DNA of 64,000 nucleotides from an uncultured delta proteobacterium (GCA_963811025.1 CAWEPX010000033.1:144583-208582); one strand, 5' to 3'; counted from the stretch's first letter, positions 1-42,150 are shown. Numbers and translations are program-made. The notes: generated from the letters alone by a model not told the origin.

Positions 1-3000
1 CTCGAACGATACGCAACAGGGGCGTGCGCTGAACCGTCGCGTGGAGGTGGAGTTCTGGCACGACGATCCGCTTCAGGATCTTCCCGACGAGCCCCAACTG
101 TGCCCTGACGCCCTCGCCACCGAAACCGTCACCCGCGTCTACGATTCGCCGTCGGGTGGCATTGATCCTATTTTGTTTGAAAACGGCAAGCCTGTGATAC
201 CGGCAGGTTACACCGAACGTTTGCGTCGCATCATGGACGAGATAAGTGACAAGACCAATGTCCGCCTGCGGTTTGTCGGCTACACAAGCAACAAGCGCCT
301 CGACCGGCGGACTGCAGTGGTTTACGGAGACGACATCGGTTTGTCCATGGCGCGTGCACGCCGTTCCATGGCGGCCGTCGACGAGCAGATGGGGTTGGCG
401 GAAGGGCAGTCGGAGTTCGACGGCCGCGGCTATGTTCAGTCAGACGATGTGATAAATGCCGGTTTTATCGAGTCCGATACGTCGAGAGTCAAGGTTCAGG
501 TAGTCTACGATGAACAGATCATCCGCGACGAATACGAAGGCGTGGAAGTCACCCCCATGACTCGCGAGGTGAGCACCGCCGATCCCTTTGCCCTGAATCT
601 CATGCGCATCACGGTAGACGGCAAGCCGCTCGACGATCCGGGAAAATGCAGTTCCGATGTGCAGCGCTGCACCGACGTGGCCCTGGACAATGCCCAAATC
701 CAGGTTAAGTACGACAGCCTGAAGGCGGAACCGCGGTTGAACGTGGCCGCCTGGCCAATTACGGTCCGCTATCGGGATCTGCCGGATACTGCGTTTGCCG
801 AAAACATGGTGCATTTCCGCCTGTACTCGAACTACCGCACCTTTATAGAGAGGGCGGAAGTCAGGATTTTCGAAGAGAAGCAGTCCGTCCGCGATACCCC
901 CATTGCCGTCGTCGAGATGGATGCCGACGGGTTGGCCCAATGGCAGGCCGAGTTCGAGTCCTTCTCCGCGTCGGTTCGCAGGCTGAAATACCTGGTGCGT
1001 GTGTACGACAGAAAGGGGCTTTTTGACGAGACGAGCACCCAGCCACTGTGGGTAGTCGACAAAATCGATCCGTCGGTCGTCGAAGCGAACGTTGACGAAA
1101 AACTGCTGGTCGTTTACGGCGAGAGCCGAATCGCCAGCCGCAATATTCCCCTTCACGGCGGTACGGTGCAGGCGCACGGGACCGCGATTCCAGAAGGAGA
1201 CGGGGTATGGATGGCCGGATACAGAGTGCCGGTGGACAACACCGGTAATTTCGTGGCCGAAGAGATTCTGCCGGAGGGCATGCAAACCGTGGAAGTGGCC
1301 GTGCTCGATGAGTTCGGCGACGGCGAACTATTTCTGCGTGATCTGGCGCTGAAAAAGAACGACTGGTTCACCGTGGGGATCGCCGACCTGACCTTGTCAG
1401 GAGGCAAGACAGACGGACCGGCCGAACGGGTTGCGCCGGATAACCCCCTGTACGGCGACGACTCGAACCTCCAGGGTCGCCTGGCGTTCTATACGACCGG
1501 CAAATTCGAAAACGGCTGGTCGCTGACGGCGAGCGCCGATACGCGCGAAGGTCCCCTGGATGATATCTTTTCCAATTTTCTGGACAAGTCCCCCGAGGCA
1601 TTGTTCAGGCGTATAGATCCGTACTACCACTACCCAACCTACGGAGACGACAGCACCGTCACGCAAGACGCGCCGACCAACGGAAAGTTCTTTGTGAAAG
1701 CGCAAAAAGAGAAAACCTACGGACTCTGGGGCAATTTCAAGATCGCGTATACCGATATCGACCTGGCGCACGTGGAACGCGGGCTTTACGGCGCCAATCT
1801 GCATTATCAACCCCTCGACACCACCAGTTTCGGTGAGCCGCGCCTCTTAGTGGACGGGTATGCCTCGGACCCGGGTACCGTCAAGGGACAGGATGAGTTC
1901 CGCGGCACGGGCGGATCGCTCTATTTCCTGAGGCGCCAGGACGTGCTGGAGGGTTCCGAGCACGTGCGTATCGAGGTCCGCGACAAGGATTCCGGGATTG
2001 TTCTGGGAGTCAAGAACCTGACGCCGGTGCTCGATTACACGATCGACTATCTGCAGGGACGCATTCTGCTATCTCAGCCTCTGTCCCCGACGGCGGACGA
2101 CGGTCTCCTGGTTTCCACCCGCTCCCTCAGCGGGAATCCGGTCTTCCTTGTGACAATTTACGAGTTCACTCCGGGGTTCGACGACCCGGACACGCTGTCT
2201 ACCGGTGGCAGGGTTCATTACTGGTTTAATGACTATGTCAAGATCGGGGCGACTGCAAGTCAGGATGATGAGGAGAACGTCGATAACCGGCTGGTTGGAG
2301 CGGATGTGACCCTGCGCAAGTCCGCGGCGTCGTGGATCAAACTCGAAGCGGGGCATACCAAAGGTCCGGGCGTTTTGGCGACGAATTCCGTGGACGGCGG
2401 TTTCGGTTTCGGCACGGTGGGCAGCTTGCTCGACAATACCGCGGAAGCGCCGGCCTATCGCGTGGATGCCAGTTTGGGCCTCAAGGACATCTTTGAAAAC
2501 GCGCGCGGGAAGGTCACCTTCTACCTGCAGGATCTCGAGGCAGGCTATTCGGCGCCGGGCGTGGCCACCGCACGGGACCTGACCGAATACGGGGGAACGG
2601 CAGAGATACCGTTAACCGACCGTCTGAGCGCACAGTTGAAGATGGACAAGCAGGATCAGCAGGAAGGTCTGGAGACCGAAAACGAGGAACTAGACCTCAA
2701 ATACCAGATAGACGAGCACTGGACCCTGGGGTCGGGGGTGCGTCACGAAGAGCGCAAGGACAATTCGGTGGTGGTTCCCGCCACCCAGGAAGAGGGCGAC
2801 CGGACAGACGCAGTGGCCCGGCTGCAGTACGATTCCAATGCACGATGGAAGACCTACGGGTTCGTTCAGGGCACGGTTCAGTCAAGCGGCACCATTGAGG
2901 ACAATGACCGCGTCGGTGCCGGCGGCAGCTACCGTTTGACCGACAAGTTCAATGTCACCGGTGAGGTTTCCGGAGGAGATCTCGGGCCAGGCGCCAAACT

Positions 3001-4045
3001 CGGGACCGAGTATCTGTATTCCGACCGGACCACCATCTACAGCAATTACACGTACGAGGACGAACGGACGGACAACGGTTTGCTTGCCAGGAAGGGCAAG
3101 ATGACTTCCGGTTTCCGGACTCGTTATTCGGACAGCGCCAGTGTTTACCTCGAAGAGCTGTATACCCACGGCAATGTCCCCACGGGCCTGACGCATTCTG
3201 CCGGTGTAAAGCTCGTGGTTTTCGAGCGGCTCAATGTCGGCGCCAATATCGATTATGGAACCCTCAAGGACCCACTTACTTCGGCTGAACTCGAAAGGAA
3301 GGCGGTGGGCGTGAGCGCCGGCTACGGATTTGACAAGCTGAAGCTTGCCAGCGCCGTGGAATACCGGGTCGACGATATCGAGCAGACCGATCTCAGCTAC
3401 TCCAAACGTACCTCCTGGCTGTTGAAAAACAGTTTCAAGTACCAACTGTCAGAGGATTGGAGGCTTTTAGGCAAATTCAATTACGCTGTGAGTGACAGTT
3501 CGATGGGAGATTCCTATAGCGGTGACTATACGGAAGCGGGACTCGGCTATGCGTATCGCCCCGTCAATAATGACCGACTGAACGCGCTGCTCAAGTACAC
3601 CTATTTCTACAATGTGCCGGCGTTCGACCAGGTGACCGGAACCGGTACGCCGGCCGACTATATCCAGCGCAGCCACATCGGAGCTGTGGACGTCATGTAT
3701 GACCTGACGGACCGTTGGACCGTGGGAGGCAAGTATGCCCACCGGTACGGGCAGGTGTCCCCGGATCGGATTAATCGGGAGTTCTTCACCAGCCGGGCCA
3801 ATCTGTACGTGCTTCGCGCAGACTGGCACATCGTCTACAAATGGGATGCATTGGTCGAAGTGCGCAGACTTGACCTTCCCGACGCGGACGACAACCGCAG
3901 CGGGGTGGTGGTGATGTTGTACCGCCACGTGACCGATCATATCAAGGCGGGAGTTGGCTATAACTTCAGCGATTTCTCGGATGATCTGACCCAACTGGAT
4001 TACAGGTACCAGGGGCTGTGCGTCAACCTGGTCGGGAAGTATTAG
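1..4045 (+). CDS. Large outer-membrane protein with OmpA-like domain(s); 5' end lies outside the window
   Basis: The reading frame is open from nt 2. Window-start residues 'NRRVEVEF' match the OmpA C-terminal motif, and a second OmpA-like segment follows ('RLRFVGYTSN...LSMARARRSMAAV...RVKVQVVYDE'). About 1000 aa of Gly/Tyr/Asp-rich sequence follows with an aromatic C-terminus, consistent with a beta-barrel. It is first in an envelope gene cluster. Confidence 0.6.
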   Translation, partial: SNDTQQGRALNRRVEVEFWHDDPLQDLPDEPQLCPDALATETVTRVYDSPSGGIDPILFENGKPVIPAGYTERLRRIMDEISDKTNVRLRFVGYTSNKRLDRRTAVVYGDDIGLSMARARRSMAAVDEQMGLAEGQSEFDGRGYVQSDDVINAGFIESDTSRVKVQVVYDEQIIRDEYEGVEVTPMTREVSTADPFALNLMRITVDGKPLDDPGKCSSDVQRCTDVALDNAQIQVKYDSLKAEPRLNVAAWPITVRYRDLPDTAFAENMVHFRLYSNYRTFIERAEVRIFEEKQSVRDTPIAVVEMDADGLAQWQAEFESFSASVRRLKYLVRVYDRKGLFDETSTQPLWVVDKIDPSVVEANVDEKLLVVYGESRIASRNIPLHGGTVQAHGTAIPEGDGVWMAGYRVPVDNTGNFVAEEILPEGMQTVEVAVLDEFGDGELFLRDLALKKNDWFTVGIADLTLSGGKTDGPAERVAPDNPLYGDDSNLQGRLAFYTTGKFENGWSLTASADTREGPLDDIFSNFLDKSPEALFRRIDPYYHYPTYGDDSTVTQDAPTNGKFFVKAQKEKTYGLWGNFKIAYTDIDLAHVERGLYGANLHYQPLDTTSFGEPRLLVDGYASDPGTVKGQDEFRGTGGSLYFLRRQDVLEGSEHVRIEVRDKDSGIVLGVKNLTPVLDYTIDYLQGRILLSQPLSPTADDGLLVSTRSLSGNPVFLVTIYEFTPGFDDPDTLSTGGRVHYWFNDYVKIGATASQDDEENVDNRLVGADVTLRKSAASWIKLEAGHTKGPGVLATNSVDGGFGFGTVGSLLDNTAEAPAYRVDASLGLKDIFENARGKVTFYLQDLEAGYSAPGVATARDLTEYGGTAEIPLTDRLSAQLKMDKQDQQEGLETENEELDLKYQIDEHWTLGSGVRHEERKDNSVVVPATQEEGDRTDAVARLQYDSNARWKTYGFVQGTVQSSGTIEDNDRVGAGGSYRLTDKFNVTGEVSGGDLGPGAKLGTEYLYSDRTTIYSNYTYEDERTDNGLLARKGKMTSGFRTRYSDSASVYLEELYTHGNVPTGLTHSAGVKLVVFERLNVGANIDYGTLKDPLTSAELERKAVGVSAGYGFDKLKLASAVEYRVDDIEQTDLSYSKRTSWLLKNSFKYQLSEDWRLLGKFNYAVSDSSMGDSYSGDYTEAGLGYAYRPVNNDRLNALLKYTYFYNVPAFDQVTGTGTPADYIQRSHIGAVDVMYDLTDRWTVGGKYAHRYGQVSPDRINREFFTSRANLYVLRADWHIVYKWDALVEVRRLDLPDADDNRSGVVVMLYRHVTDHIKAGVGYNFSDFSDDLTQLDYRYQGLCVNLVGKY

Positions 4046-4116
4046 AGCGTGGGGGCTTTGCCCGATGGATGCGGAATACAAGGAAAAACGGATTTCCGAG
4101 ATGTGAGGAGGCCAAC

Positions 4117-4632
4117 ATGTTTAGCTGGCAGCGAGGCGTCATTATAGGGATTTCAGTGCTCTTTTTAAGCGCTGTCGCTTACGGGCAGGAAATCTCGAAG
4201 GAACAGATCAAGGGCCTGGATGAACAGGTCCAGGAGGTCAAGAGCGATGTCCTGAGCATCGCGGCGGAATTGAACCAGCTTGAAGAGAAGCTGCTGTATC
4301 CGTCCAACACGCAGGTCGCGGTATTCGTGTCGCTGGCCAACGGCGAGACCTTCCGTCTCGATTCGGTGGAGATCCAGCTGGACGGAGAGCCGGTCGCCTA
4401 CCACCTTTACACCTTCAAGGAGCTTGAAGCCCTGCGGAAGGGCGGGGTGCAGCACATTTACACCGGCAATGTCCGGTCCGGCGGGCATGACCTCCAGGTT
4501 CTGGTCCTCGGCAAAAACGCAGGGGGGACCGATTTCAAAAAATCGGGACGTTTCACGTTCGATAAGGACGTGGGCCCGAAGTTCGTGGAGATATCTCTGG
4601 CCGGCAAGGACATCACCATGAATGACAGGTAG
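4117..4632 (+). CDS. Hypothetical secreted protein (signal peptide, coiled-coil N-terminus)
   Basis: RBS 'gaggagg' precedes ATG 4117. The hydrophobic signal 'VIIGISVLFLSAVAYGQ' is present. No family recognised. Confidence 0.5.
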   Translation: MFSWQRGVIIGISVLFLSAVAYGQEISKEQIKGLDEQVQEVKSDVLSIAAELNQLEEKLLYPSNTQVAVFVSLANGETFRLDSVEIQLDGEPVAYHLYTFKELEALRKGGVQHIYTGNVRSGGHDLQVLVLGKNAGGTDFKKSGRFTFDKDVGPKFVEISLAGKDITMNDR

Positions 4633-4635
4633 ACC

Positions 4636-6528
4636 ATGAAGAGGCTGATAGTTTCATTGACCATTCTGATATTTTCAACGCCTTCGGCGTCGGCCGGACC
4701 GTCCGCTCCGAAGGAGCTGAGGGACCTCCACTTCGGAGAGGCCCTCTATTGCGCGTATCAGGGAGATTGGTTCGACGCCATCTCAAGGCTCGACACCGAA
4801 CTCATGCAGCACTATGGGGTGGACGAGCCAGAACGCGACATCCTTCATTATCATGTCGGCGAAGCGAAGTTCGACGTGGGCGATTTCGAGCTGGCATACC
4901 GGATGCACCGGCGGGCCGGGCGCGCCTATACGGCGGTCATCGAGGGCAACGTCGAGGAGCCGGTGCGCAACGAGGCCATTTTCCGCTTGGCGCGGCTCTA
5001 CTTTCAGAAGGATCAGCCGGTCAACGCCGAGGACGCAGTGGAGAGCATCAGGGGGGACGTCCCGCCGGAGATTCGCAACGACCTGGATTTCCTGCGCGCC
5101 CAGATCCACATGGCCAATGGCCGGTATCCCGATGCCGTGAGAATTCTGAGGGGCCTAAAGGATGCCAAGGGCCTCCAGGGCTTTGCCACATACAACCTCG
5201 GCATCGCCCTTATCAAGGACGGAAAGGAGCTCGAAGGCCGCCAGGTTCTCGACCACACGGGCCAGATAAGCGGCGTTGACGATGTCACCCTGGCGATCAA
5301 GGACAAGGCGAACCTCGTCCTCGGGTTCAAGCTGTTAAAGGAGAAGGATTTCGAGGGTGCCAAGCTGGTGCTTGACCGGGTGCGCCTAAACGGGCCGTTT
5401 TCCAACCGGGCGTTGCTTGCCTCGGGATGGGCGGACGCCTCCCAAGGACGATTCGAGAGGGCGTTGGTGCCCTGGAGCACTGTCGTGACGAGAGAGGTCA
5501 CGGACGCCTCGGTGCAGGAGGCCATGCTCGCCGTCCCTTATGCGTATGGCAAGCTGAACGTGAACAGCAAGGCAGCGGTGATGTACGACGGTGCGCTCGA
5601 GAAGTTCGATGCTGAATTCGACAACCTCGGGGCGTCCATCAAAAGCATCCGCGAAGGCAATTTTCTCCGGGCTCTGACGCGGGAGGAACTGAAACAGGAC
5701 GCTGACTGGGTCGTCAAGCTGCGCGAGCTCCCCCAGACTCCCGAGACATATTACCTGCTTGACCTGATGGCCTCCCATGATTTCCAGGAATCCCTGAAGA
5801 ACTATCTCGACCTGGAGCAGTTGCGCACGAAGCTTTACTCCTGGGAAAAAGATTTGGACGCTTTCGAGGATATCATTGCGCAACGCTGGGCATATTACGA
5901 GCCGCTTCTTCCAGTCATCGACCGGGAGTTCCGGCGGCTTGACTCACAAATGCGCCTGCGCCTGGAGCAGCGGGACCGCATCGAGCAGCGTCTTACGGCC
6001 ATGCTGGTGGTCCCGAGGCCCGATTATTTAGCGACCGCCGAGGAAAGGGTCATCGGTGAGCGGATCGCGCTCTTGGAGCGAAAGCTGACTACGGGTGGCA
6101 CAGCAGTACCCGACGAGGTCGACGCCAGAATCAACCGTTTGCGGGGAGTGCTGCACTGGAACGTCTATACGGAATACGACGGTCGCTTCACAGAGGCCTA
6201 TAAGGATCTACGCGACCTCAATCGAGAGGTGGACCTGTTGAAGAGGCAGTACTCCGCCTTTGTCCGCACCCGCCAAGCCGCCACCCAGAGCTACGAAGGA
6301 TACGACGACGTGATCCGTCGCCTGAGGTCGACGATAGGAAAGGCCCGGGAAAAGGTGGGCCAACTGATGGCACGACAGGGCCAAATGCTCGAGACCATGG
6401 CCGTCAACGAACTCAACGCCCGCCGTGATCGGCTTGCCAAGTTCCAAACCAAGGCAAGTTTTTCCATGGCGGACAGCTATGACCGCGCCACCAGGGCCCA
6501 GATCAAGGAAAAGGAAAAGGGTGAGTAA
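4636..6528 (+). CDS. TPR-repeat periplasmic protein
   Basis: Signal peptide 'MKRLIVSLTILIFSTPSASA'. TPR-like helical repeats throughout. The stop overlaps the next start (taaATG). Confidence 0.65.
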   Translation: MKRLIVSLTILIFSTPSASAGPSAPKELRDLHFGEALYCAYQGDWFDAISRLDTELMQHYGVDEPERDILHYHVGEAKFDVGDFELAYRMHRRAGRAYTAVIEGNVEEPVRNEAIFRLARLYFQKDQPVNAEDAVESIRGDVPPEIRNDLDFLRAQIHMANGRYPDAVRILRGLKDAKGLQGFATYNLGIALIKDGKELEGRQVLDHTGQISGVDDVTLAIKDKANLVLGFKLLKEKDFEGAKLVLDRVRLNGPFSNRALLASGWADASQGRFERALVPWSTVVTREVTDASVQEAMLAVPYAYGKLNVNSKAAVMYDGALEKFDAEFDNLGASIKSIREGNFLRALTREELKQDADWVVKLRELPQTPETYYLLDLMASHDFQESLKNYLDLEQLRTKLYSWEKDLDAFEDIIAQRWAYYEPLLPVIDREFRRLDSQMRLRLEQRDRIEQRLTAMLVVPRPDYLATAEERVIGERIALLERKLTTGGTAVPDEVDARINRLRGVLHWNVYTEYDGRFTEAYKDLRDLNREVDLLKRQYSAFVRTRQAATQSYEGYDDVIRRLRSTIGKAREKVGQLMARQGQMLETMAVNELNARRDRLAKFQTKASFSMADSYDRATRAQIKEKEKGE

Positions 6529-9500
6529 ATGAAGCGGATCCGACTTTTCCTTTGCGCGGCGCCATTGATGCTGGCCGCATGTGCCTCGGTAAGCAACAGG
6601 GATACCATTGCCACGTTGCGACATGAGCATATCGAGATCAAGGAGGAGAAGATCGAGGGCGGGCTTGAGAAAGCGATGATGAGTTACAAGCGTTTCCTGA
6701 AGGACAAGCCGGACTCCACCTTGACGCCAGAGGCCATTCGTCGTCTGGCCGACCTGAAGATCGAAAAAGAATACGGCACCTTCACGACGGACGCCGGGAC
6801 TACCGGGTCGGCCCGGGCGTTGCCCCCCCCTGAACACGTGACGCCTCCCGAGTCCTCTCCGGTCGCCGGAGCAGCGCCGGAGCAGGCAGTGGCGCATATT
6901 CCGGTCCACGACGAGTCTGAGGCGGACTTTGTAGATCGTGCAGCCCACAGCCTGGCGGCGGACAGCACGGCGACGGCCACTGACAGGTCCGTCGGAGGAA
7001 CCGGCGATCTCGAACGGACTGGCGCCCGCGAGGCCATTGCGCTTTACCAGAAGCTTCTCGATGATTACCCCCTTTATGAACGCAACGACCAGGTGCTGTA
7101 CCAGATGTCCCGAGCGTATGAGGAACTGGGGCAGACCGAGGAGGCCATGGCGGTCATGGACCGGATGGTCCGCGAGTATCCACAGTCTCGGTATTTCGAT
7201 GAGGTGCAATTCCGGCGCGCTGAATACTACTTCGTGCACAGGCGCTACTTGGATGCCGAGAATGCCTACGAGAGCATCGTGAATATGGGCGCCGATTCAC
7301 AGTTCTACGAGCTGGCCCTGTACAAGCTGGGATGGACGTTCTACAAGCAGGACCTCTATGAGGACGGCCTGCAATGGTTTATCGCCCTAATGGACCACAA
7401 GGTGTCGGTGGGGTACGACTTCGAACAGACCGAGGACGAGCAGGAACGAAAGCGGACAGACGACACCTTCCGGGTCATCAGCTTGAGTTTTTCCAACCTC
7501 GGCGGAGCCGATTCCGCGGTGGAATACTTCTCGAAACACGGCAAGCGCAGCTACGAGGACAGCATATACAGTAACCTCGGCGAATTCTACTTCGACAAGC
7601 GCCGTTACGCCGACGCCGCCGCGACCTACAAAGCCTTCGTGGATCGCAACCCGTACCACAAGGCGGCACCGAACTTCCAGATGCGGATTATCGAAATTCA
7701 CGCTGCCGGCGGATTTCCCACTCTCGTTCTTGACTCCAAAAAGACATTCGCCGCGGCCTACGGTTTGCAGGCTGATTACTGGAAGTATTTTGCTCCGGGG
7801 GAGAGGCCGGACGTCCTTGGTTATCTGAAAACCAACTTGACCGACCTGGCGAACCATTATCATGCCTGCTATCAGGACCCCCGGCTGGCCAAGGGAAAAA
7901 TCTGCAAACTTCGAAGAGGCGCTGCACTGGTACAGGGAGTTTCTGACCTCGTTCCCCGCGGACCCCGAATCGCCTGCTATCAACTACCAGTTGGCGGATC
8001 TACTGATGGAAAACCGGTCGTTCGGAGAAGCGGCCGTGGAATTCGAGAAGACCGCGTACAACTATCCGACCCATGCAAAATCCTCCCAGGCTGGCTTCGC
8101 GGCGGTCGCCGCGTACCGGGAGCAACTGGCCGCCGCCGCTCCGGAAGACCAGGACGCGGTCAAACGGGAGGTCGTTCGCAGTTCGCTTACGTTTGCCGAT
8201 ACCTTCCCGGAACACGAAAAGGCTGCGATCGTTCTCGGGGCGGCCGCGGATGACCTGTACGGGATGAAGGAATATGAACAGGCGCGCGCCGCCGCCAACA
8301 GGCTCATCGAGGCGTTCCCCAGCGCAGAAACTGACGTCGTCCGCGAGGCCTGGCTGGTCGTCGGCCATGCATCTTACGAACTCTCGCGCTACGGCGAGGC
8401 CGAGGGCGCCTATATGAATGTATTATCGTTGCTTCCAGCGGAGGACACATCGCGCGAAGCTCTGATGAACAATCTCGCGGCATCGATTTACAAGCAAGGG
8501 GAGCAGGCCAATGCCGCCCAGGATTATAGAGCCGCAGCGGACCACTTCCTGCGGGTGAGCCGCGTGGCGCCGACCTCGAAAATCAGGCCGACCGCCGAAT
8601 ATGACGCTGCCGCGGCCCTGATCCAGGTCAAGGACTGGGAGGCGGCAGCATCGGTGCTGGTTGGATTCCGCAATACCTTTCCCGAGCACCCGTTGCAGCC
8701 CGAAGTGACAAAGAAGATCGCCTATGTCTACAGGGAAAACAATCAACTTTCCCTCGCGGCCATCGAGTATGAACGTATCGAAAGGGAATCCCGGGACGAC
8801 GAGACCAGGCGGGATGCTCTCCTGGTTGCGGCGGAGTTGCATGAAAAGGCAAACAATAGCGCCCGCGCGCTTGAGGTGTACCAACGCTACGTGGGCTTTT
8901 TCCCGCAACCGGTGGAGCTCAACCTGGAGACGCGAAACAAAATTGCCGGGATCCTGAAGGCACAGAACGACCGCACATCCTATCTTGAGGAACTCGAAAA
9001 GATCGTAGCCATCGACGCCTCGGCGGGGAGCGAACGGACCCTGCGGACCCGCGAACTTGCCGCACAGTCCGCATTGGTGTTGGCCGAGCAGGCATATGAC
9101 GCGTTTATTGCCGTCGACCTGGTACAACCCTTTGAGGTCAATCTGCAGAAGAAGCGCGAGCTGATGAAGATTGCTACACAGAAATTCAGTCAGCTCGTGG
9201 ATTACGAGATTGGGGACATCACTGCCGCGGCGACGTTCTATCTGGCCGAGATCTACGCCAACTTCAGCAAGGCCCTGATGGCGTCGGAGCGTCCCACGGA
9301 CCTGAGCCCCTTGGAACGGGAACAGTACGAACTGGCCATCGAAGAGCAGGCCTATCCGTTCGAAGAAAAGGCCATCGAGGTCCATGAGAGCAATCTCAAG
9401 CTGATCTCCCGCGGGGTATACAATGCGTGGATCGAAAAGAGCCTTCAGAAACTGGCGAAGTCCGTGCCCGCGCGATATGACAGGCCGGAAGATGCCAGCG

Positions 9501-9967
9501 GCATCATCAGTTCGGCGGACACTTACGTTTTTGCAATCGACAGACCGATTCCAGCGTACTCCCACGTGGCGAAATCCGTGGGGTCCGTTAATGCGCCTCC
9601 CGCCCAGGCTCAAGAACCCGGATCAGTAACGGAGTCTGACATTGCAGCACCTGCCCAGGCCGGAGAACCCGTCGCTACGACAGAGCCGGAAACAGCGGCG
9701 CCGGCCCTGGTCGAAGAACCCGGATCCATAACGGAGTCTGGCACCGCACCGCCTGCCCAGGTCCAGGAACCAGGATCTGAGACGGAGTCCGACACCACGG
9801 CGACTCCCCAGGCTGAACAACCCCGACCTGTGATGGGGCCGGACACTGCGGCGCCCGCCAAGGCCGAAGAACCCGTATCCGTGATGGAGCCGGAGACTGC
9901 TGCACCTGCGCAAAGCGACCGCATGGGCCAGCCCCCGATAAGAACGGGCGATGCAACAAGGAGGTAA
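6529..9967 (+). CDS. Large TPR-repeat lipoprotein (~1140 aa, GltD/AgmU-like), interrupted by a frameshift near 7870-7890
   Basis: Lipobox 'LMLAACAS'. Two overlapping ORFs (6529-8253 and 7862-9967) read as one continuous TPR protein if one indel is repaired: '...LANHYHA' in one frame continues as 'EKSANFEEALHWYREFL' in the next. The C-terminus carries acidic Pro/Glu/Thr 17-aa repeats. Confidence 0.6.
9598..9930 (+). repeat. About 6.5 diverged 51-nt tandem repeats encoding a 17-aa 'APAQxxEPGSxTESDTA'-type unit
   Basis: Successive units are visible in the sequence, e.g. cctgcccaggccggagaacccgtcgctacgacagagccggaaacagcggcg / ccggccctggtcgaagaacccggatccataacggagtctggcaccgcaccg. Confidence 0.7.
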
Positions 9968-9970
9968 GCG

Positions 9971-10663
9971 GTGCACAGCATGCATATAAGAATGTTGCGA
10001 AGGATACAAACACGAACGTGCGCCGGATTCGCCGTTCTTGCAATGGCGCTGGCGGTTCTCGCCGGGTGCGCAACTGGTGGAAAGGTCAAGGCCCCGGATG
10101 CTCATGAACCCTCCGCGGTTAAGGGCCCCTCAGTGGCGAGACTCGCGGATGGCCGGGAAGGGTTCATCATCACGGAAGTCCCCACGATGGATGAGGCGGC
10201 GCGCAGGGACTTCGATCGCGCCGTTGCCATGCTGAAGGACCAGGATTATGAACGGGCCATCGACCTTCTTGAAAAGGTCATCGAGCAGTCGCCGGGCGTC
10301 ACGGCGCCATATATCGACATCGCGATTGCCTATCAGCGCATCGGCAAGCCGGAGCGGGCCGAGGAGCATCTTCGCACAGCGCTGACGCTATTTCCCGGGC
10401 ACCCGGTGGCATGTAATGAATACGGTCTCTTGTATCGCAAGACCGGACGGTTTACCGAGGCGCGGGAGATTTATGAGAAGGCAATCGAGCGCTTTCCGGA
10501 TTATTATCCGGCGCACAAAAATCTCGGGATTCTCTGCGACCTGTATCTGAATGATCCGGCGTGCGCCTTGGAGCATTACGAGATATACAGCATCGCCAAT
10601 CCGGATGATACGCAGGTCACATTGTGGGTCGCGGATTTGCGCGCCCGGCTTGGACGCGATTAA
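9971..10663 (+). CDS. TPR-repeat lipoprotein
   Basis: Lipobox 'VLAGCATGG'. TPR motifs (e.g. '[27 protein letters not shown]'). Confidence 0.65.
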
Positions 10664-10675
10664 GGAGGGACAGCG

Positions 10676-10962
10676 ATGCGTCGCATTTTGGTCCTGTGTG
10701 TGTGTTTGGTACTCTTCCCGGCTGTCCTGCCGCAGCCGGGGATGTGGATAGCGAAGAGCAATCGGAAGCCAAGGAGCTATCCGGCATGTCGATCGTCGGC
10801 AATGACGAAGCACCGAAATCCCTTTACATCGTTCCCTGGAAAAGCTCGGAAATCGGCGCGGAGACCAGCCTGGACACGATGTTGAATGAAGGCGATGTGC
10901 CGGTGGACCGGGACGTTTTCAAGCGGCAGCTTAGATTTTATCAAGTCAGCACGAAGAAATAA
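10676..10962 (+). CDS. Small secreted acidic protein, apparently frameshifted after its signal peptide
   Basis: The signal peptide 'MRRILVLCVCLVLFPAV' is in frame 2. The mature-looking part 'LPGCPAAAGDVDSEEQ...PKSLYIVPWKSSEIG...' is in frame 1. The switch falls at a 'gtgtgtgtgtttgg' run. Confidence 0.35.
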
Positions 10963-10996
10963 CTTTGTTGTCTCGTTTGGGGAGAGGAGGAAAGCG

Positions 10997-11647
10997 ATGG
11001 GATTCTATTCAATAGTGGCGTTTTTCCAGAAGGGTGGGGTGTTCATGTACCCGATCCTGCTCGTGTTTGCGGTTGGGATGGCCATCGCGTTTGAACGCTG
11101 GGTTCAGTTGAACCGCATCCGGGGCGTAAATCAAAAGATGTGGGACATGCTGCATCCGGTGCTGGTCAAGGGAGAGTTCGATAAAGCCCGGGAAATGGTC
11201 AGCAAGGACAAATCCAGCATGGCGCAGATGCTGGGGATGGGACTGGCGCGCCAGGGCGCGGTCCGGCGGCGCGAAGACATCGAAATCGCCATGGAAGAGA
11301 GCATGATGGAGATCATCCCCCAGCTGGAGAAGCGCACGCCCTACGTGGCGCTGCTCTCCAATATCGCCACCCTGCTGGGGTTGCTCGGCACCATCATGGG
11401 GCTGATCGAGGCCTTCACCGCCGTTGCCAATGCCAACCCCGCCGAAAAGGCCGACCTGCTCTCGGCCAGCATCTCGGTGGCCATGAACACCACCGCCTTC
11501 GGACTGATGTCCGCGATTCCGCTGCTGCTGTTCCATGCCAAGCTGACCTCGACCGCCGGCCAGATCGTGGACAGCCTGGAAATGGCATCGGTCAAGACGC
11601 TGAACACCATCTCCAATTTCGCCAAGCGTCAATTCGAGAGGAGCTGA
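10997..11647 (+). CDS. MotA/TolQ/ExbB proton-channel protein
   Basis: RBS 'ggagaggagg' then ATG. Three TM helices and the TolQ/ExbB signature '...LLGLLGTIMGLIEAF...AMNTTAFGLMSAIPLLLFH'. Confidence 0.85.
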   Translation: MGFYSIVAFFQKGGVFMYPILLVFAVGMAIAFERWVQLNRIRGVNQKMWDMLHPVLVKGEFDKAREMVSKDKSSMAQMLGMGLARQGAVRRREDIEIAMEESMMEIIPQLEKRTPYVALLSNIATLLGLLGTIMGLIEAFTAVANANPAEKADLLSASISVAMNTTAFGLMSAIPLLLFHAKLTSTAGQIVDSLEMASVKTLNTISNFAKRQFERS

Positions 11648-11649
11648 CC

Positions 11650-12140
11650 ATGACCAGACGATATCATCACAAAAGGGGAAGGGAAGAAACATCCGGCCTG
11701 GACGTCACGACCTTCATGAACCTGATGGTGGTGCTCGTCCCGTTTCTGCTCATCAGTGCCGTCTTTTCGCGCGTGACGATCATGGAGCTGAGCGTTCCGA
11801 CCAGCGCCGGCGGAGCGGCTCGAAAGAGCCGAATTTCGCCATCGAAGTGATTGTCCGTAAAGCCGGACTGGAGATCGCCAACGGATCGTCCGTGGAGGCC
11901 GCAATTCCGAAAAAAGACGGTCACTACGACATGCAGATGCTGCACGAAATGCTCATGCGCCTGAAGGCACGTTACCCGAAGAAGGATGACGCGACAGTCC
12001 TGATGGAACCGGATATCGAGTACGACTATCTGGTCCAGGTCATGGATGCGGTACGCGGCGCCGAAGTGCGGGCGGAAGGGAGCGAAGAGGTCAAGAAAAT
12101 AGTTCTCTTTCCATACATATCGATAGGAGACGCGCCATGA
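11650..12140 (+). CDS. ExbD/TolR family protein (frameshift near 11815-11830)
   Basis: The N-terminal TM segment 'TTFMNLMVVLVPFLLISAVF' (ORF 11650-11850) and the C-terminal periplasmic ExbD domain 'IEVIVRKAGLEIANG...' (ORF 11847-12140) lie in different frames. Confidence 0.7.
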
Positions 12141-12632
12141 GAGAAACCAGACGCATGAAACGGATGGGGCGCAGCAGGAAGAAGATTACAGGTCTGAACC
12201 TGACGCCGCTGATGGATGTTTTCACCATTCTGGTGTTTTTCCTGCTTTTTCACTCGTCCGGCGGCGATATTGTGGAAGCGCCCAAGCAGATCAAGCTGCC
12301 CGATTCCGTCGTCGAGACCAAGCCAAGGGAAACGGTTGTGATCATGGTCAGCCCCGAGGTAGTGCTGGTCCAGGGCGAAGCCGTGATCGGCACCCCCGAA
12401 CTCCTTGATGACCGGATCGGGTCGGTTGCTGCGAATAACAGAGCGGTTGACGCAGCTTGAGCGCAATATCATCGGGATCAGCACCAAGACGGTTGCCGAA
12501 AACAAAGAAGTCACGATCCTTGCGGATAAAACGATTCCGTTCAAGGTACTTAAAAAAATAATGTCAACCTGTACGGACTCTGGATACGGAAGGATTTCCC
12601 TGGCCGTCATTCAGAAGGCCGTCCAGGGCTAG
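12137..12632 (+). CDS. Second ExbD/TolR family protein (frameshift near 12400-12420)
   Basis: N-terminus 'LNLTPLMDVFTILVFFLLF' and C-terminus '...KEVTILADKTIPFKVLKKIMSTCTDSGYGRISLAV' (ExbD C-terminal pattern) lie in different frames. Confidence 0.7.
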
Positions 12633-12642
12633 CGAGGATGCC

Positions 12643-14121
12643 GTGAAAACATCCATGTTAGCGCAGGAATTGGCGCCTCTGGAGGCGCTTATCGGGCAGG
12701 CGCGGCAAAGGAAAGATGCCCTTGAGGGTGAGTTGCGCGCCGTCGAGGCAGAACTCGAAACATTTTCCGCCGAGAGACAGCGGTTCGATGCGTTGCGGGA
12801 CATTTGCAATGCGTTCGACAGGCTGGGGGAACTGAAAGCGGATGCACTCTTTTGGGAAGGAGTCGCGGAGGGCCAGGACACCGCCGGACACGTGGAACGG
12901 GCGAGGAACCGGGTTGCCCGCTTCGAGGGGGAGATCGGCGGGATCCTGGAAAATCAGGCATCTCTACAGGGGCAGATCAAGCAATGTCTCGACGAATTGG
13001 ACATCCTCTATGAAGAAGTACGTGATGCGTACGACCGTGAAGAGCGGCGGAAGGAAGAGTTCGTCATAGAGCGGGAGATATCCCCTGTTCCCTATCGCGC
13101 AATGGTCATGCCATGGACCAAGGAGGCCGAGAGCGAAAGACGCTTCAATCGCTCCGTCCTCGTGGCGCTTTCCATAAGCTTTCTTTTCGGCGCTCTCATT
13201 TCCCTGATAATAGTGCCGATACCGGACCGCTCGGTCGCCGTTGCGGAAATTCCAAAACGATTGGTCCAGCTGGTCAAGAAGGAGATACCAAAGCCCGCGC
13301 CGGCGCCGAAGCGCGAGCCGAAAAAGGTCGAGGAGGAGACAAAACAGGCGAAGAAAGAGCCCAAACCCAAGGCCGATGAGCCTAAGCCGGAAGCACCGCC
13401 GAAAGAGGCGAAGCCGGCGGAGAAACCTACGAAAACGGCCGCCAATGACGGCGGGGCGGCGGCATCGAGGAAAAAGGCCGAAGGTGTCGGCGTTCTGAAG
13501 TTCAAGAACGCCTTCAAGGACTTAATGAACGAAGTTCCCGTTGCGAAGCTTGGCACCGAGGCCCGTCTGAGCAAGGAGAGCCCGCGGACGAAAGGACAGG
13601 CCGTGGCCCAGCGCTCGCTTGTGGCCATGCAGGGGGTGGGCGGCTCCAGCGGAGGTATCGGCGGCGCAGGCGTCAGCCGCAACGTTGGATACGGCAATGC
13701 CGGCCGGCTCGGAGGCGGCGGCGGTATCGGCAGCGGCGGTGGCAGCGGAGTGGGCTTTGTTCGGGTAGAAAGCTCCATAGCAAATTTGGAAGAATCGTCG
13801 AGGCCGACGAGCGATGGAATGGCCGCTGGACGAACGGATGAAGAAATCCAGATTGTATTCGATCGGTACAAGGCGGCCCTTTACCGGATCTACAACCAGG
13901 AACTGCGCAAGGACTCGACGCTACAAGGGAATATATTGATGCGAATCAGCATCGAACCGGACGGCGCGGTGTCCTTGTGCAAGGTGGAATCAACCGACTT
14001 GGCTTCAACCAAGCTGGTAGACAAGGTTGTGGAGCGCATCAGAAGGTTCAACTTTGGCCCGAAGGAAGGTGTTCAGAAGGTGACCATCCTGTACCCGATC
14101 GACTTTTTACCCGCTGGTTAG
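12643..14121 (+). CDS. TonB-family protein with ~170-aa cytoplasmic coiled-coil N-domain, one TM, Lys/Pro/Glu-rich and Gly-rich linkers, and C-terminal TonB domain (GltG/AgmX-like architecture)
   Basis: Coiled-coil N-terminus. TM 'VLVALSISFLFGALISLIIV'. Linker 'KPAPAPKREPKKVEEETKQAKKEPKPKADEPKPEAPPKEAKPAEKP'. Gly run. The C-terminal segment 'YNQELRKDSTLQGNILMRISIEPDGAV...KVTILYPIDF' resembles a TonB C-terminal domain. Confidence 0.7.
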   Translation: MKTSMLAQELAPLEALIGQARQRKDALEGELRAVEAELETFSAERQRFDALRDICNAFDRLGELKADALFWEGVAEGQDTAGHVERARNRVARFEGEIGGILENQASLQGQIKQCLDELDILYEEVRDAYDREERRKEEFVIEREISPVPYRAMVMPWTKEAESERRFNRSVLVALSISFLFGALISLIIVPIPDRSVAVAEIPKRLVQLVKKEIPKPAPAPKREPKKVEEETKQAKKEPKPKADEPKPEAPPKEAKPAEKPTKTAANDGGAAASRKKAEGVGVLKFKNAFKDLMNEVPVAKLGTEARLSKESPRTKGQAVAQRSLVAMQGVGGSSGGIGGAGVSRNVGYGNAGRLGGGGGIGSGGGSGVGFVRVESSIANLEESSRPTSDGMAAGRTDEEIQIVFDRYKAALYRIYNQELRKDSTLQGNILMRISIEPDGAVSLCKVESTDLASTKLVDKVVERIRRFNFGPKEGVQKVTILYPIDFLPAG

Positions 14122-14190
14122 AAAAGCGGAGGGGACGGGGTATACGTTTAAGGACGGAGACCACCGAGTGTCCGATTATAGGAGGAAACA

Positions 14191-14895
14191 ATGGGAATGA
14201 TTGCGTTTTTCCAAAAGGGCGGGTTGTTCATGTACCCCATTCTGCTGGTGTTTGTCGCCGGTATGGCCATTGTGGTCGAACGCTGGGTTCAGTTGAACCG
14301 CATCCGGGGCGTAAATCGAAAAATGTGGGATATGCTTCATCCCATACTGGCCAGGGGTGAATTCGACAAAGCGCATTCGATAATCGACAAGGACAAGTCC
14401 ACCATCTCTCAAATGCTGGGGATGGGACTGGCGCGCATGGGTGCGGTCCGGCGGCGGGAGGACATCGAAATCGCCATGGAAGAGAGCATGATGGAGATCA
14501 TCCCCCAGCTGGAGAAGCGCACGCCCTACGTGGCCCTGCTCGCCAATATCGCCACCCTGCTGGGGTTGCTCGGCACCATCATGGGGCTGATCGAGGCCTT
14601 CACCGCCGTTGCCAATGCGAATCCCGCCGAGAAGGCTGACCTGCTCTCGGCCAGCATCTCGGTGGCCATGAACACCACCGCCTTTGGGCTGATGTCGGCG
14701 ATTCCGCTTCTCCTGTTCCATGCCAAGCTGACATCGACCGCGGGCCAGATCGTGGACAGCCTGGAGATGGCGTCGGTAAAGTCGCTGAACAGTATTTCTG
14801 ATTTCAATAAGCGCCACTTCGAGGCGAAATCGGAGCCCCCGGCCGGAAAGCAGCAAGTTGCCACCCAGGAACCCCAGCTAGGGACAGCATCGTAA
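14191..14895 (+). CDS. MotA/TolQ/ExbB proton-channel protein, paralog of 10997-11647
   Basis: About 85% aa identity to the first copy. The central 269 nt are ~96% identical at the DNA level. Confidence 0.85.
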   Translation: MGMIAFFQKGGLFMYPILLVFVAGMAIVVERWVQLNRIRGVNRKMWDMLHPILARGEFDKAHSIIDKDKSTISQMLGMGLARMGAVRRREDIEIAMEESMMEIIPQLEKRTPYVALLANIATLLGLLGTIMGLIEAFTAVANANPAEKADLLSASISVAMNTTAFGLMSAIPLLLFHAKLTSTAGQIVDSLEMASVKSLNSISDFNKRHFEAKSEPPAGKQQVATQEPQLGTAS

Positions 14896-14953
14896 TGTCC
14901 GTTCAGGGCACGCGGAAACGATGTGTCAGCATCAAAAGAAAGGAGAAAAAGGG

Positions 14954-15529
14954 ATGAGAAACAAGGGATGGTTGGCTATCGCTCTGGGAGTGATGTTGCC
15001 GGTTATGTTATTCACGGTTTCATGTGCCAAAAAGACGGTGGTCCAATCCCAGCCGGAATCGATGGCTGGATCGGATGTCCAGAAGGCGGCAGTCCAGAAG
15101 GCGCCGGACAGACCCGCCGAGGAAGCCAGGCCGGACGGACGGCTTGAAGAAGACCGATTTCGGGCGGAAACCGCTGCCCGTGAAGCCGCCTTGACGGCGT
15201 TCGTCGGCGAGAATATCCATTTCGAATTCGACAGTTTTCTGTTGTCGGACCAAGCCCGGCAGATTTTGGTCAGCAAGGCCGAGTATCTGCGCACGAATCC
15301 GGATATAATGGTCACGGTGGAAGGGCATTGCGATGATCGCGGCACGAGTGAGTACAATATCGCCCTGGGCGAACGACGTGCCGAATCGGTCAGGATGTTC
15401 CTCGGTGATCTGGGCATCGGAACCAATCGGATGAATACCGTGAGTTACGGAGAAGAACGGCCCATTGCCACGGGACACGATGAGGCTTCCTGGGCCGAGA
15501 ACCGCAGAGCCCAGTTCGTGATCAATTGA
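14954..15529 (+). CDS. pal: Peptidoglycan-associated lipoprotein (OmpA-family C-terminal domain)
   Basis: Lipobox 'LFTVSCAKK'. OmpA/Pal motif 'TVEGHCDDRGTSEYNIALGERRAESV...NRRAQFVIN'. Confidence 0.8.
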   Translation: MRNKGWLAIALGVMLPVMLFTVSCAKKTVVQSQPESMAGSDVQKAAVQKAPDRPAEEARPDGRLEEDRFRAETAAREAALTAFVGENIHFEFDSFLLSDQARQILVSKAEYLRTNPDIMVTVEGHCDDRGTSEYNIALGERRAESVRMFLGDLGIGTNRMNTVSYGEERPIATGHDEASWAENRRAQFVIN

Positions 15530-15796
15530 TTTCCGACTAATCGCTTGTCCTTCAAGAACTGATCATGTGGGCACATCACGAGGTGTTTGGCTTGGAAATC
15601 CGCCGGGCAATCCATCGGCAGGCAACCGGCAATGCATCATTGGAATGTCGGGGTAACCCCCGAACTTCCCGGAATAAGACGACTTCGGAAGAACCCGGAT
15701 AGGATAAGGGAAAAACAGGGCATTTCAGCAAAATTTGGCCAATATACGGGAAACATAAGCGAGAACGTGCGCAATTTCATTGGAGGAGGTCGGTCG

Positions 15797-16201
15797 ATGA
15801 ATGCGATCCGGAAGGCAGGCTGGTTTTTCTCCTTGGTGTTGATGATGGCATGCGTAATGGGAGTACTCGGGTCGATCCGGGGAGAGGCAGTGGCGGGCGT
15901 CATCGCATCCCACGGCACGGACAGCGTGGTTGCTCGGAACGTGGACATCACCAAGGTCCAGTCATTCCTGGAGCAGAAGATCGTCCTGCAGAAGTTCTCC
16001 GACTACGGGGTCTCCGCGGACGAGGCGATGGAAAAGGTCCGCGCGATGAGCGACCGGGAGGTGCATCGGCTCGCTGCCCTGACCGACCGGGCGGCCGAAG
16101 GGACGGACTCCGGGCTGGGCCTGCTGATCGGGCTGGCGGTCCTCGTCCTCCTGATCGTCGTGATCCTCAAGCTGATGAATAAGGAAGTCGTCGTTCGCTG
16201 A
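15797..16201 (+). CDS. Hypothetical exported protein with C-terminal TM anchor
   Basis: RBS 'ggaggaggtcggtcgATG'. N-terminal signal/TM and C-terminal 'LGLLIGLAVLVLLIVVILKL'. Confidence 0.45.
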   Translation: MNAIRKAGWFFSLVLMMACVMGVLGSIRGEAVAGVIASHGTDSVVARNVDITKVQSFLEQKIVLQKFSDYGVSADEAMEKVRAMSDREVHRLAALTDRAAEGTDSGLGLLIGLAVLVLLIVVILKLMNKEVVVR

Positions 16202-16257: not shown

Positions 16258-16926
16258 ATGTAACGACATTTTGTGAGCGCACTCCCGACCTTCCTCTCTG
16301 AAACTCTCATACGGTTCCGAGGTGTTTCACACATCAACACCCTCTCGGCAAGCCCCCCTTTTCATCCAGAAAATGCCAGTTGTTTGCACTGATTTGCAGT
16401 CCGTTCGGACTCACTAAGCGGTACTTAAAGAACTTATGATCATCCGGCGCTATTGGAGTGAATGCGGACAGGGCACTACTTGGGCATACAGGTCTCTGTC
16501 GGGATGAGGATCGTATGCATTGGAGAAGTATGCTTGGGTGTCTAGGATCCCGATGGGATTCACTTCACGGAGATGGTATCTGTAAGCCCCCTAGAATAGC
16601 ATTGATATTGGTTACATTCCTGTCTCGATTCCGCATTCCGCGTCATATTTGTTGTTATGGCATGATTCATGAATTACAAGTTTATTGGGTATTCGGGGCA
16701 CTAAAAAGAGCGTACTTCCGGACCTTTTGGGGGCGCAGGAAAGGAAAGGTTTCGAAATCTTCCGAGCGATACCAAATGTGTAAATTCCCGAAAGAAAAAT
16801 CTAAGATGCGGGTGGAGCAATCACGGGTGATTTTCAGGATAGGCAGTGAAAAATGCAACCTCCTAACGGGGCAACAATCACAAACATTGGAAGAAGCCTG
16901 AGAGGATGACAGGGGGAGGCAACAAC

Positions 16927-41213: not shown

Positions 41214-41432
41214 GTTTGCTCCTTTCCGGCCCGGACAGGGTAACCCTGCTGCTATTTTTACACGTAACGTGCCGGAACCGAAGTTCCGATACACAGGACG
41301 TGAGGAGGAAGATGACCATGACGATCGATGTGGACCCGGACGCCGGCGAGATCTTCGTCAAGGATGATGCCGGCAACGAGCGCCCGGTGAAGTCCATCGT
41401 GGCATCCCGGCGCCTGGTAATATTGTGCCCGC

Positions 41433-41957: not shown

Positions 41958-42150
41958 GACCCCTGCCGCTCCCCCCGAACGTGTTAGAATCCCACCTATT
42001 ATACGAGGGATAACGGCTCATACGAGGGACAACAGCGATTCCCCCGGGGAGTCTCCCGCCACGATGACGTTTCCCCGCTTTTCGAATTTCCTTTGCCGTT
42101 TCTTCGTCCTGTCGCGGGAGCCGAAACGATCCGTCAAGGAGACGCCGTTC

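Follow-up and report, generated by a model that had tools for sequence, protein, structure and literature searches.

The closest described relatives of the gene cluster considered here belong to the Agl-Glt gliding system of Myxococcus xanthus and to its so-called core complex, which extends beyond the Myxococcales. The core complex consists of the Group B genes gltC, gltD, gltE, gltG, aglR, aglQ and aglS together with one gene without homologues in Myxococcales; it is clustered in one genomic region in Geobacter, several Gammaproteobacteria, one betaproteobacterium and Fibrobacter, and its function was given as unknown (PMC3169522). In Geobacter uraniireducens, the core comprises Gura_3077 (629 amino acids, aa; GltC), Gura_3076 (1108 aa; GltD), Gura_3075 (240 aa; GltE), a numbering gap at 3074, Gura_3073 (211 aa; AglR), Gura_3072 and Gura_3071 (166 aa each, corresponding to MXAN_6861 and MXAN_6860, i.e., the aglQ-aglS pair) and Gura_3070 (484 aa; GltG) (PMC3169522, Table S3). 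The Anaeromyxobacter order is gltC-D-E-F-G, with a GltF of 89 aa (PMC3169522). In M. xanthus, AglR was shown to bind GltG (PMC3169522), the motor was modelled with AlphaFold as AglR5-AglQ-AglS, and the mature chains of the lipoproteins GltD and GltE start at Cys1 (PMC11761067). Here we describe a cluster of this kind in positions 1-15529 of a 64,000-nucleotide stretch of DNA from an uncultured delta proteobacterium (GCA_963811025.1, CAWEPX010000033.1:144583-208582), which we refer to as the window and whose coordinates are used throughout. With a probability that we put at about 0.55, this member of the Agl/Glt core family would be a proton-driven motor with a scaffold that acts, via a giant outer-membrane barrel, on a giant adhesin-like protein.

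Twelve genes were identified in this region by open reading frame (ORF) calling, all on one strand (plus), as an earlier note on this DNA, made from the sequence alone, had described; they are tightly packed or overlapping. Their products were scanned with Pfam and NCBIfam profiles (NCBIfam also at E<=10), equivalog cut-offs were applied, and all twelve were compared by tblastn with 84 fetched related loci, which are metagenome contigs or genomes and are designated by L-numbers where they must be told apart. Listed in the order of the Gura genes, the products measure 630, ~1143, 230, ~95, 216, ~163, ~164 and 492 aa, and both order and sizes also match GM21_0438-0442 of Geobacter sp. M21. The loci of a Geomonas (L035) and a Geobacteraceae (L023) metagenome-assembled genome (MAG) are syntenic with the window and 61-68% identical to it in the GltC-like protein; their GltD-like ORF is 1088 aa long, compared with 1090 aa for GM21_0439. 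The GltG-like protein passes the AgmX/PglI C-terminal domain model (NF033768, 57.5 bits versus a cut-off of 40), and its best full-length NCBIfam models are GltG (NF033760, 45 bits, E=4.9e-12, cut-off 650) and GltJ (39 bits), both far below their equivalog cut-offs, with GltJ matched solely through the shared C-terminal domain. Gene order, sizes, synteny with Geobacter-type loci, the passed AgmX/PglI model and GltG as the best full-length model together support the assignment of the cluster, from its sequence, to the published Agl/Glt core complex family, of which it is a further member in an extended operon. The earlier note had suggested an Agl/Glt core-type machine of this composition, and both the comparison of gene order with core-only genomes (Gura_3077-3070 and GM21_0438-0442) and the profile similarity to GltG bear the suggestion out. 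Two of its details have to be corrected. GltF was counted as a core member, whereas the published core has GltC instead and a small gene is found only in the position of GltF; and GltG was equated with AgmX, whereas AgmX is GltJ and PglI is GltG.

The arrangement is widespread and very constant. A genome scan with a 13-sequence alignment of the 630-aa GltC-like family, conducted on one genome per species, showed that a GltC-like relative is encoded in at least 580 species genomes, including the Geomonas and Geobacteraceae MAGs, and in metagenomes such relatives form thousands of 50%-identity clusters. They span MAGs labelled Desulfobacterota, Nitrospirota, Gammaproteobacteria, Betaproteobacteria and Zetaproteobacteria. 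The nearest species-genome matches (L005, L006 and L013) carry the labels of Arthrobacter sp., Actinomycetota and Parcubacteria MAGs, and these labels are almost certainly binning errors. The order p171-GltC-GltD-GltE-p95-TolQ-ExbD-ExbD-GltG is identical in all 45 loci, among the 80 best, that hold all nine genes, which is beyond what chance would produce. Since the order is kept with p171 included, this small gene, which in virtually all related loci has a homologue directly in front of the GltC-like gene, is the ninth universal member, outside the published core. The earlier note had also stressed that the components are contiguous and coupled to a giant barrel and Pal. The giant barrel is indeed a constant neighbour, but contiguity is the rule in non-myxobacteria and no peculiarity of the window locus, and Pal is specific to a clade. 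Some gammaproteobacterial contigs (L045 and L059) contain, beside the first core, another one that is more divergent; the GltG-like protein of this second copy is short (~300 aa, with its transmembrane helix near residue 27) and resembles the 321-334-aa GltG homologues of Marinobacter and Hahella listed in PMC3169522.

The constant position of the core beside a giant barrel and an adhesin-like gene suggests what the core does. In all loci labelled Desulfobacterota or Nitrospirota that have enough upstream sequence, the gene of a giant outer-membrane protein (OMP) lies directly upstream of p171, and a further giant ORF is found upstream of the giant OMP. This further ORF, which encodes 3358 aa on a 5.1-Mb contig, contains five DUF11 stretches together with SdrD_B, DUF7507, DUF7619 and DUF7927 (Pfam). 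In gamma- and betaproteobacterial loci, a similar long ORF is located directly 3' of gltG, and in one genome of this type a 3451-aa giant ORF in this position is followed by the OMP homologue. Altogether, a giant gene of the CLIPPER family is adjacent in 29 of the 29 loci that can be evaluated on both sides (27 by tblastn and 2 by Pfam). The encoded CLIPPER/DUF11 and SdrD_B repeat protein (3358-3451 aa) carries a Sec signal peptide. DUF11 was renamed CLIPPER in 2025 and described as a domain with isopeptide bonds that builds the stalks of fibrillar adhesins (PMC12617251). By synteny, the CLIPPER gene in the organism of the window would sit just upstream of position 1. In the literature that could be searched, we found no paper on a core neighbourhood of giant barrel and adhesin, nor one on a link of the core to DUF11.

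A partial hint at an adhesin role of the core comes, by analogy, from experiments on Fibrobacter succinogenes. Its genes FSU_2396-2403, in the order OmpA-TPR-TPR-TolQ-ExbD-ExbD-TonB (TPR, tetratricopeptide repeat), are induced on cellulose, and the OmpA and TPR proteins of the cluster were found in an adhesion and cellulase complex (PMC6851124). The order of these genes matches that of Fisuc_1892-1897, which Luciano et al. give as the core of Fibrobacter and with which we presume the FSU tags to be equivalent. Taking these data further, we tentatively suggest that the core might be the motor and periplasmic scaffold of an unrecognised widespread, proton-driven apparatus which exports, anchors or mechanically operates giant (>3300 aa) CLIPPER adhesins through a ~29-strand OmpA-domain barrel, with the focal adhesions of myxobacterial gliding as a derived version. 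This broader suggestion is clearly less secure than the reading given at the outset; if it is true, an adhesin-operating core would explain how gliding focal adhesions evolved.

A mechanism can be proposed in which gene content, domain matches, synteny and linkage are those observed, and the stoichiometry of the motor, its contacts and its output are borrowed from the literature on Tol, Exb and Agl systems and from the M. xanthus AlphaFold model. A pentamer of the TolQ-like protein around a heterodimer of ExbD1 with its Asn and ExbD2 with its proton-carrying Asp would use the flow of protons to produce movement. The GltG-like protein, with its single membrane pass, would dock on this motor and cross the periplasm via its long Pro/Lys/Gly-rich linker, and its AgmX/PglI C-terminal domain would engage a scaffold beneath the outer membrane. 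The scaffold would be formed by the GltD-like and GltE-like TPR lipoproteins, the secreted GltC-like protein with its TPR and coiled-coil parts and the two small secreted proteins, and the partner in the outer membrane would be the giant OMP with its peptidoglycan-binding OmpA-like domains and ~29-strand barrel. Work would most likely be done on the neighbouring giant CLIPPER/DUF11 adhesin-like protein, whether in its export, anchoring, exposure or tensioning.

Several points weigh against this reading. The adhesin-like gene itself lies outside the window, linkage to a CLIPPER gene is not proof of function, and we found no paper on the function of the core in organisms that do not glide. The kinship to M. 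xanthus GltC, GltD and GltE would derive from published BLAST and phylogeny mapping and from the GltG/AgmX profile matches; the match to the GltE model (32 bits) probably reflects generic TPR similarity. The cytoplasmic domain of the GltG-like protein gives no FHA match in Pfam, and the transmembrane helix of this protein lacks the His which TonB and TolA use to bind their motor (PMC12204202). Pal, the OmpA-like domains and the CpoB-like TPR units would fit envelope tethering equally well. Finally, four genes of the window copy are frameshifted, so that the organism may not have a working machine.

As regards the motor, the two TolQ/ExbB proteins and the Pal lipoprotein announced by the earlier note are all present: MotA_ExbB is matched with 88.7 bits by TolQ1 and 89.8 bits by TolQ2, ExbD is matched by four ORF fragments (all Pfam), and Pal passes its equivalog model TIGR02802 (137.8 bits versus a cut-off of 125.35). 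In ExbD1, Asn replaces Asp23 of TolR and an Asp is found six residues upstream (F[LM]NLMVV in 41 of the 47 loci with a motif match); ExbD2 has the canonical transmembrane Asp (LMDVFTIL, in 37 of 37 such loci). Because this asymmetry is conserved, the Asn/Asp pair argues for an obligate ExbD1-ExbD2 heterodimer, as was proposed for AglQ/AglS (PMC11761067). TolQ2, which is 88% identical to TolQ1 and has no TolR partner of its own, occurs only in the close clade of the window (L001-4, L010-12, L016, L029 and L085-86). A Pal-like gene 3' of gltG is present only in some of the loci labelled Desulfobacterota and Nitrospirota, and the clusters of gamma- and betaproteobacteria have neither Pal nor TolQ2. 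Both genes are, then, clade-specific additions.

The equivalog models separate this motor from those of better-known systems. The scores for TolQ (TIGR02796 tolQ, 59.9 bits versus 221), TolR (TIGR02801, 23-25 bits versus 127), ExbB (38 bits versus 206) and ExbD (26 bits versus 153) are 4- to 6-fold under the cut-offs, and no TolA or TolB family was matched by any of the 12 products in Pfam or NCBIfam. An ordinary Tol-Pal or TonB siderophore locus was ruled out by these scores together with the lack of TolB, TolA and receptor genes, in agreement with the earlier note, which had placed the cluster in neither category. A looser Tol-Pal likeness deserves more attention, in which the motor would drive the binding and release of peptidoglycan-binding OMPs (Pal and the OmpA-domain giant) and so hold the outer membrane in place, for example at division sites, and the giant repeat protein would be unrelated cargo. 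Such tethering would account for a Pal over its equivalog threshold, for the OmpA-like domains of the giant OMP, for the seven YbgF/CpoB-like TPR stretches of the GltD-like protein and for tolQ being the best NCBIfam motor model of both TolQ-like proteins. It is harder to reconcile with the missing TolB and TolA, with TolQ and TolR scores far under their cut-offs and with a CLIPPER linkage that persists through rearrangement of the gene order. Moreover, since gamma- and betaproteobacterial versions do without Pal and TolQ2, these two cannot represent the core function of the cluster. We consider tethering of this kind unlikely, and prefer the adhesin-directed reading.

The transducer of the proposed motor, the GltG-like protein, consists of a ~170-aa cytoplasmic helical domain, one transmembrane helix, a Lys/Pro- and Gly-rich linker and the AgmX/PglI C-terminal domain. 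In the 93%-identical orthologue, as in almost every other relative, the hydrophobic segment begins around residue 171, and therefore a cytoplasmic stretch of ~170 residues, pointed out for this TonB-like protein by the earlier note, is a trait of the family. More than 5390 homologues were found, the top 120 of which are full-length and 69-95% identical; look-ups for sequences exactly identical to the GltG-like protein or to TolQ2 of the window retrieved no record. TonB_C is matched with 19.3 bits, below the threshold of 24.6. GltG does not feature in a survey of TonB/TolA-type transducers published in 2025 (PMC12204202). The common ancestry with the Agl-Glt system raises the question of whether the cluster might encode a functional gliding machine of the Myxococcus type. 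This is extremely improbable. The Group A genes gltA, gltB, gltH, gltK, gltI, gltJ and gltF, as well as cglB and aglZ, were not found in the cluster; the GltG-like protein reaches 45 of the 650 bits of the GltG model and has no FHA domain; and according to Luciano et al. the core alone is insufficient for motility (PMC3169522).

In the scaffold, TPR families (Pfam) match three proteins, weakly in the GltC-like and strongly in the GltE-like protein. Both TPR lipoproteins, GltD-like and GltE-like, possess a lipobox, in keeping with M. xanthus. The AlphaFold model of the GltC-like protein (pLDDT 86) has TPR at residues 30-340 and long helices at 380-629, and a fold search with this model against the PDB gave generic TPR matches only. 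By position and size, this protein, the family of which has 2246 cluster representatives at E<=1e-3, is the equivalent of Gura_3077/GltC, and the GltE-like protein likewise matches Gura_3075. The GltE model of NCBIfam gave 27-32 bits on the TPR proteins of the cluster versus a cut-off of 225, no better than PilW or MamA, and neither the TPR proteins nor the small ones were matched by a GltC, GltD or GltF model at E<=10. In the L001 orthologue of the GltD-like protein, the seven YbgF/CpoB-like TPR stretches sum to 114.7 bits. At its C-terminus, the window protein has 17/34-aa units rich in Pro, Glu, Ala and Thr, encoded by 51- and 102-nt tandem repeats at 9603-9900; this repeat region varies between close relatives. 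No Pfam or NCBIfam family was matched by the two small proteins, p171 and p95. A signal peptide (...AVAYG/QE), a helix and a beta-rich part follow one another in p171. The published core contains p95 as its 'additional gene'; it stands where gltF stands in Anaeromyxobacter, and only its position is that of GltF.

The giant OMP is cut by the start of the window. It is ~1726 aa long in the closest relative and about 1700-1750 aa in full-length relatives generally, and the window fragment aligns at 66% identity with residues 367-1711 of the L037 protein, which has 1712 aa. In the fragment the OmpA match is weak (Pfam E=0.004, TIGR03350 E=7e-7); PF00691 is found in full-length relatives (two stretches in L037), and the OmpA-like domain of the fragment belongs to a tandem series of several copies close to the full-length N-terminus, where internal repeats are seen. 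The AlphaFold model, made from a 26-sequence alignment, has ~29 consecutive antiparallel strands in the last ~530 residues (fragment residues 375-899), mostly at pLDDT 70-88, and ~370 residues of low confidence ahead of them. Foldseek against the PDB returned only large outer-membrane barrels (Cir, FhuA, LptD, MtrB and SlpA) at TM scores of 0.2-0.3, and PDB sequence searches with the giant OMP and with the GltG-like protein gave chance matches only. The C-terminus reads ...VNLVGKY. At E<=1e-10, more than 3014 proteins, annotated as 'MotB' or 'OmpA family', belong to the family. PF00691 in the relatives, the predicted strands and the barrels found by Foldseek confirm an OmpA-domain OMP with its barrel at the C-terminus, which is what the earlier note had predicted for the very large protein truncated at the window start.

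The best Foldseek matches of the barrel are TonB-dependent transporters, and the cluster encodes ExbB/ExbD-type domains along with a domain like the TonB C-terminal domain (CTD). One could therefore see in the giant barrel a novel energy-dependent importer of a large substrate, driven in the TonB-ExbBD way, all the more as cellodextrin uptake was proposed by the Fibrobacter authors for the FSU cluster (PMC6851124). We regard uptake as very unlikely. TM scores of only 0.2-0.3 correspond to a generic similarity of barrels; neither Plug nor TonB_dep_Rec is matched by the giant OMP in Pfam, and its ~29 strands differ from the plug and 22-strand barrel of a receptor; ExbB, ExbD and TonB_C all stay under their thresholds; and nothing in uptake systems corresponds to the three TPR scaffold proteins and the two small secreted ones.

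In the window copy of the cluster, comparison with relatives revealed that four reading frames are split by single-base changes: an additional base at ~7897 in the GltD-like gene, a missing base at ~10729 in p95, a missing base at ~11822 in ExbD1 and an additional base at ~12432 in ExbD2. A further 1-bp indel at 11636 alters only the terminal residues of TolQ1. Three claims of the earlier note are affected. The three TPR proteins, including a ~1140-aa lipoprotein, are borne out by TPR matches and a lipobox, but the lipoprotein gene is not one ORF; the small exported protein is present, and intact in relatives, but split here; and the two ExbD/TolR proteins are recognised by Pfam, but both are broken. 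The four uncompensated 1-bp indels are confined to 4.6 kb and absent from the nearest relatives L001 and L085, whose identity to the window is 93% and 95% for the TonB-like protein, and 91% and 93% at the DNA level. All 12 genes are intact in these two loci and in the more distant L003 and L004: the GltD-like protein is encoded by one 1129-aa gene in L001, p95 is intact at 95 aa in L001, L004 and L085, and ExbD1 (163 aa) and ExbD2 (164 aa) are unbroken in the relatives. Among the other window genes sampled, PntB, two sigma-54 activators, GDH, ThiE, TenA, NamZ and a PAS histidine kinase have end-to-end Pfam matches, and thus the indels are concentrated in these 4.6 kb; window-wide sequencing noise is an unlikely cause, since the sampled genes look full-length.

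It is possible that the indels are real and that the operon is decaying as a pseudogene in this organism, with a non-functional machine, which would concern its activity and not its identity. The clustering of uncompensated indels that the nearest relatives lack, the full length of the other sampled genes and the fact that not every indel falls in a homopolymer would be expected in this case. However, apart from the frameshifts, there are no premature stops and no deletions in the cluster, and the changes assigned to the window lineage in a three-way comparison give no clear relaxation of selection in the split genes (10 synonymous and 8 nonsynonymous in ExbD1, 6 and 3 in ExbD2, 2 and 2 in p95). 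In addition, window-specific substitutions are in excess around TolQ1 and ExbD1, near the ~87%-identical TolQ duplicate, which is the pattern expected of local assembly or consensus errors. Judging from these sequence comparisons, we lean towards a local assembly error over a very recent inactivation and hold decay of the operon to be rather doubtful. TolQ1 and TolQ2 are 88% identical in the window and 81% identical in L001, a difference that gene conversion or assembly mixing could explain.

The features of the cluster, and the giant CLIPPER ORFs of relatives, are collected in Table 1.

Table 1. Features of the core-type gene cluster in window coordinates, and giant CLIPPER ORFs in related loci.
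Feature	Position	Strand	Basis and remarks
Giant outer-membrane protein (OMP), C-terminal 1347 residues	1..4045	+	open frame 2-4042; truncated by window start
OmpA-like (peptidoglycan-binding) domain in giant OMP	173..439	+	Pfam OmpA E=0.004, fragment residues 58-146
Large beta-barrel, C-terminal part of giant OMP	2462..4042	+	AlphaFold prediction, ~29 strands
p171, small secreted protein (172 aa)	4114..4632	+	signal peptide; no known family
GltC-like protein, 630 aa	4636..6528	+	signal peptide, TPR, long C-terminal helices
GltD-like large TPR lipoprotein, ~1143 aa	6529..9967	+	lipobox LAAC; split, ORFs 6529-8253 and 7862-9967
GltE-like TPR lipoprotein, 230 aa	9971..10663	+	lipobox LAGC; strong TPR matches
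p95, small exported protein, ~95 aa	10676..10962	+	split, ORFs 10676-10885 and 10624-10962
TolQ1, TolQ/ExbB-like proton channel (AglR-like), 216 aa	10997..11647	+	MotA_ExbB 88.7 bits
ExbD1, ExbD/TolR-like paralogue 1, ~163 aa	11650..12140	+	ExbD Pfam on both fragments; split
ExbD2, ExbD/TolR-like paralogue 2, ~164 aa	12137..12632	+	ExbD Pfam on both fragments; split
GltG-like (TonB-like) transducer, 492 aa	12643..14121	+	AgmX/PglI C-terminal domain model NF033768
TolQ2, second TolQ-like gene, 234 aa	14191..14895	+	MotA_ExbB 89.8 bits
Pal-type peptidoglycan-associated lipoprotein	14954..15529	+	lipobox TVSC; TIGR02802; Pfam OmpA 68.6 bits
Giant CLIPPER ORFs in relatives	L037:1-4230, L032:1-4260, L050:2-4651, L088:1-9831, L087:1-7783		

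Downstream of Pal, the window encodes a DUF6627 membrane protein (15587-16201), a secreted 262-aa protein rich in Trp/Tyr and Gln that belongs to no family (16906-17694) and a Crp/Fnr-type regulator (17754-18503), and the G+C content drops to 0.49 at 16-18 kb. These three genes are kept in the closest relatives L001, L085 and L086 and are not found in L003 or L004. Farther away, a gene on the minus strand at 40471-42219 encodes 583 aa with numerous ankyrin repeats (Ank_2, 204 bits), a kind of protein that is uncommon in bacteria.

Taken by itself, the window adds a modest result, one more and possibly frameshift-damaged copy of a known cluster. The relatives in at least 580 species genomes across phyla give the scale of the question, dating from 2011, of what the core does, and the conserved unit is larger than the published one by a ninth gene, a constant giant barrel and a giant adhesin-like neighbour.

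Among the known systems, Tol-Pal resembles the cluster in the family of its 5:2-type proton motor, in a Pal that passes TIGR02802, in CpoB/YbgF-like TPR units and in OmpA-like domains, and differs from it in that the cluster has two distinct TolR paralogues and that most versions of the cluster have no Pal. The ExbB-ExbD-TonB system has in common with it the family of the motor, a single-pass transducer that is rich in proline and carries a TonB-CTD-like domain, and a large barrel as the probable target. The cluster, however, has no receptor with a plug domain and no transmembrane His, and it possesses a ~170-aa cytoplasmic extension of the transducer, a TPR scaffold and small secreted proteins. 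The Fibrobacter S85 cluster shares the order of an OmpA protein, two large TPR proteins, TolQ, two ExbD and a TonB-like protein; its TonB-like protein is short (308 aa), no GltE-like protein is listed, and the cluster is associated with fibro-slime proteins and cellulases at the surface.

The published Geobacter core has the same eight genes in the same order and of near-equal lengths, and it is likewise devoid of the gliding-specific genes. To this core our comparison adds p171 as a ninth universal gene and the giant OmpA-domain barrel and the giant CLIPPER-repeat gene as constant neighbours; the clade of the window has an extra TolQ and Pal, and the window copy is frameshifted in four genes. 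The cluster and the Agl-Glt system of M. xanthus both combine a TolQ-like channel with two distinct TolR-like proteins, and both possess a TonB-like transducer that spans the membrane once and has an AgmX/PglI domain at its C-terminus. Large TPR lipoproteins are likewise common to the two, as is a TPR connector toward outer-membrane barrels and a surface adhesin. What sets the cluster apart from M. xanthus is that GltA, B, H, K, F, I, J, CglB and AglZ were not found in it, that the cytoplasmic region of its GltG-like protein is helical and ~170 aa long instead of consisting of FHA domains, and that one giant ~29-strand barrel with OmpA-like domains stands in place of three small ones. A CLIPPER-repeat protein of more than 3300 aa is the candidate adhesin, in contrast to the vWA lipoprotein CglB of M. 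xanthus, and all genes of the window cluster are contained in one operon, which is not the case in M. xanthus.

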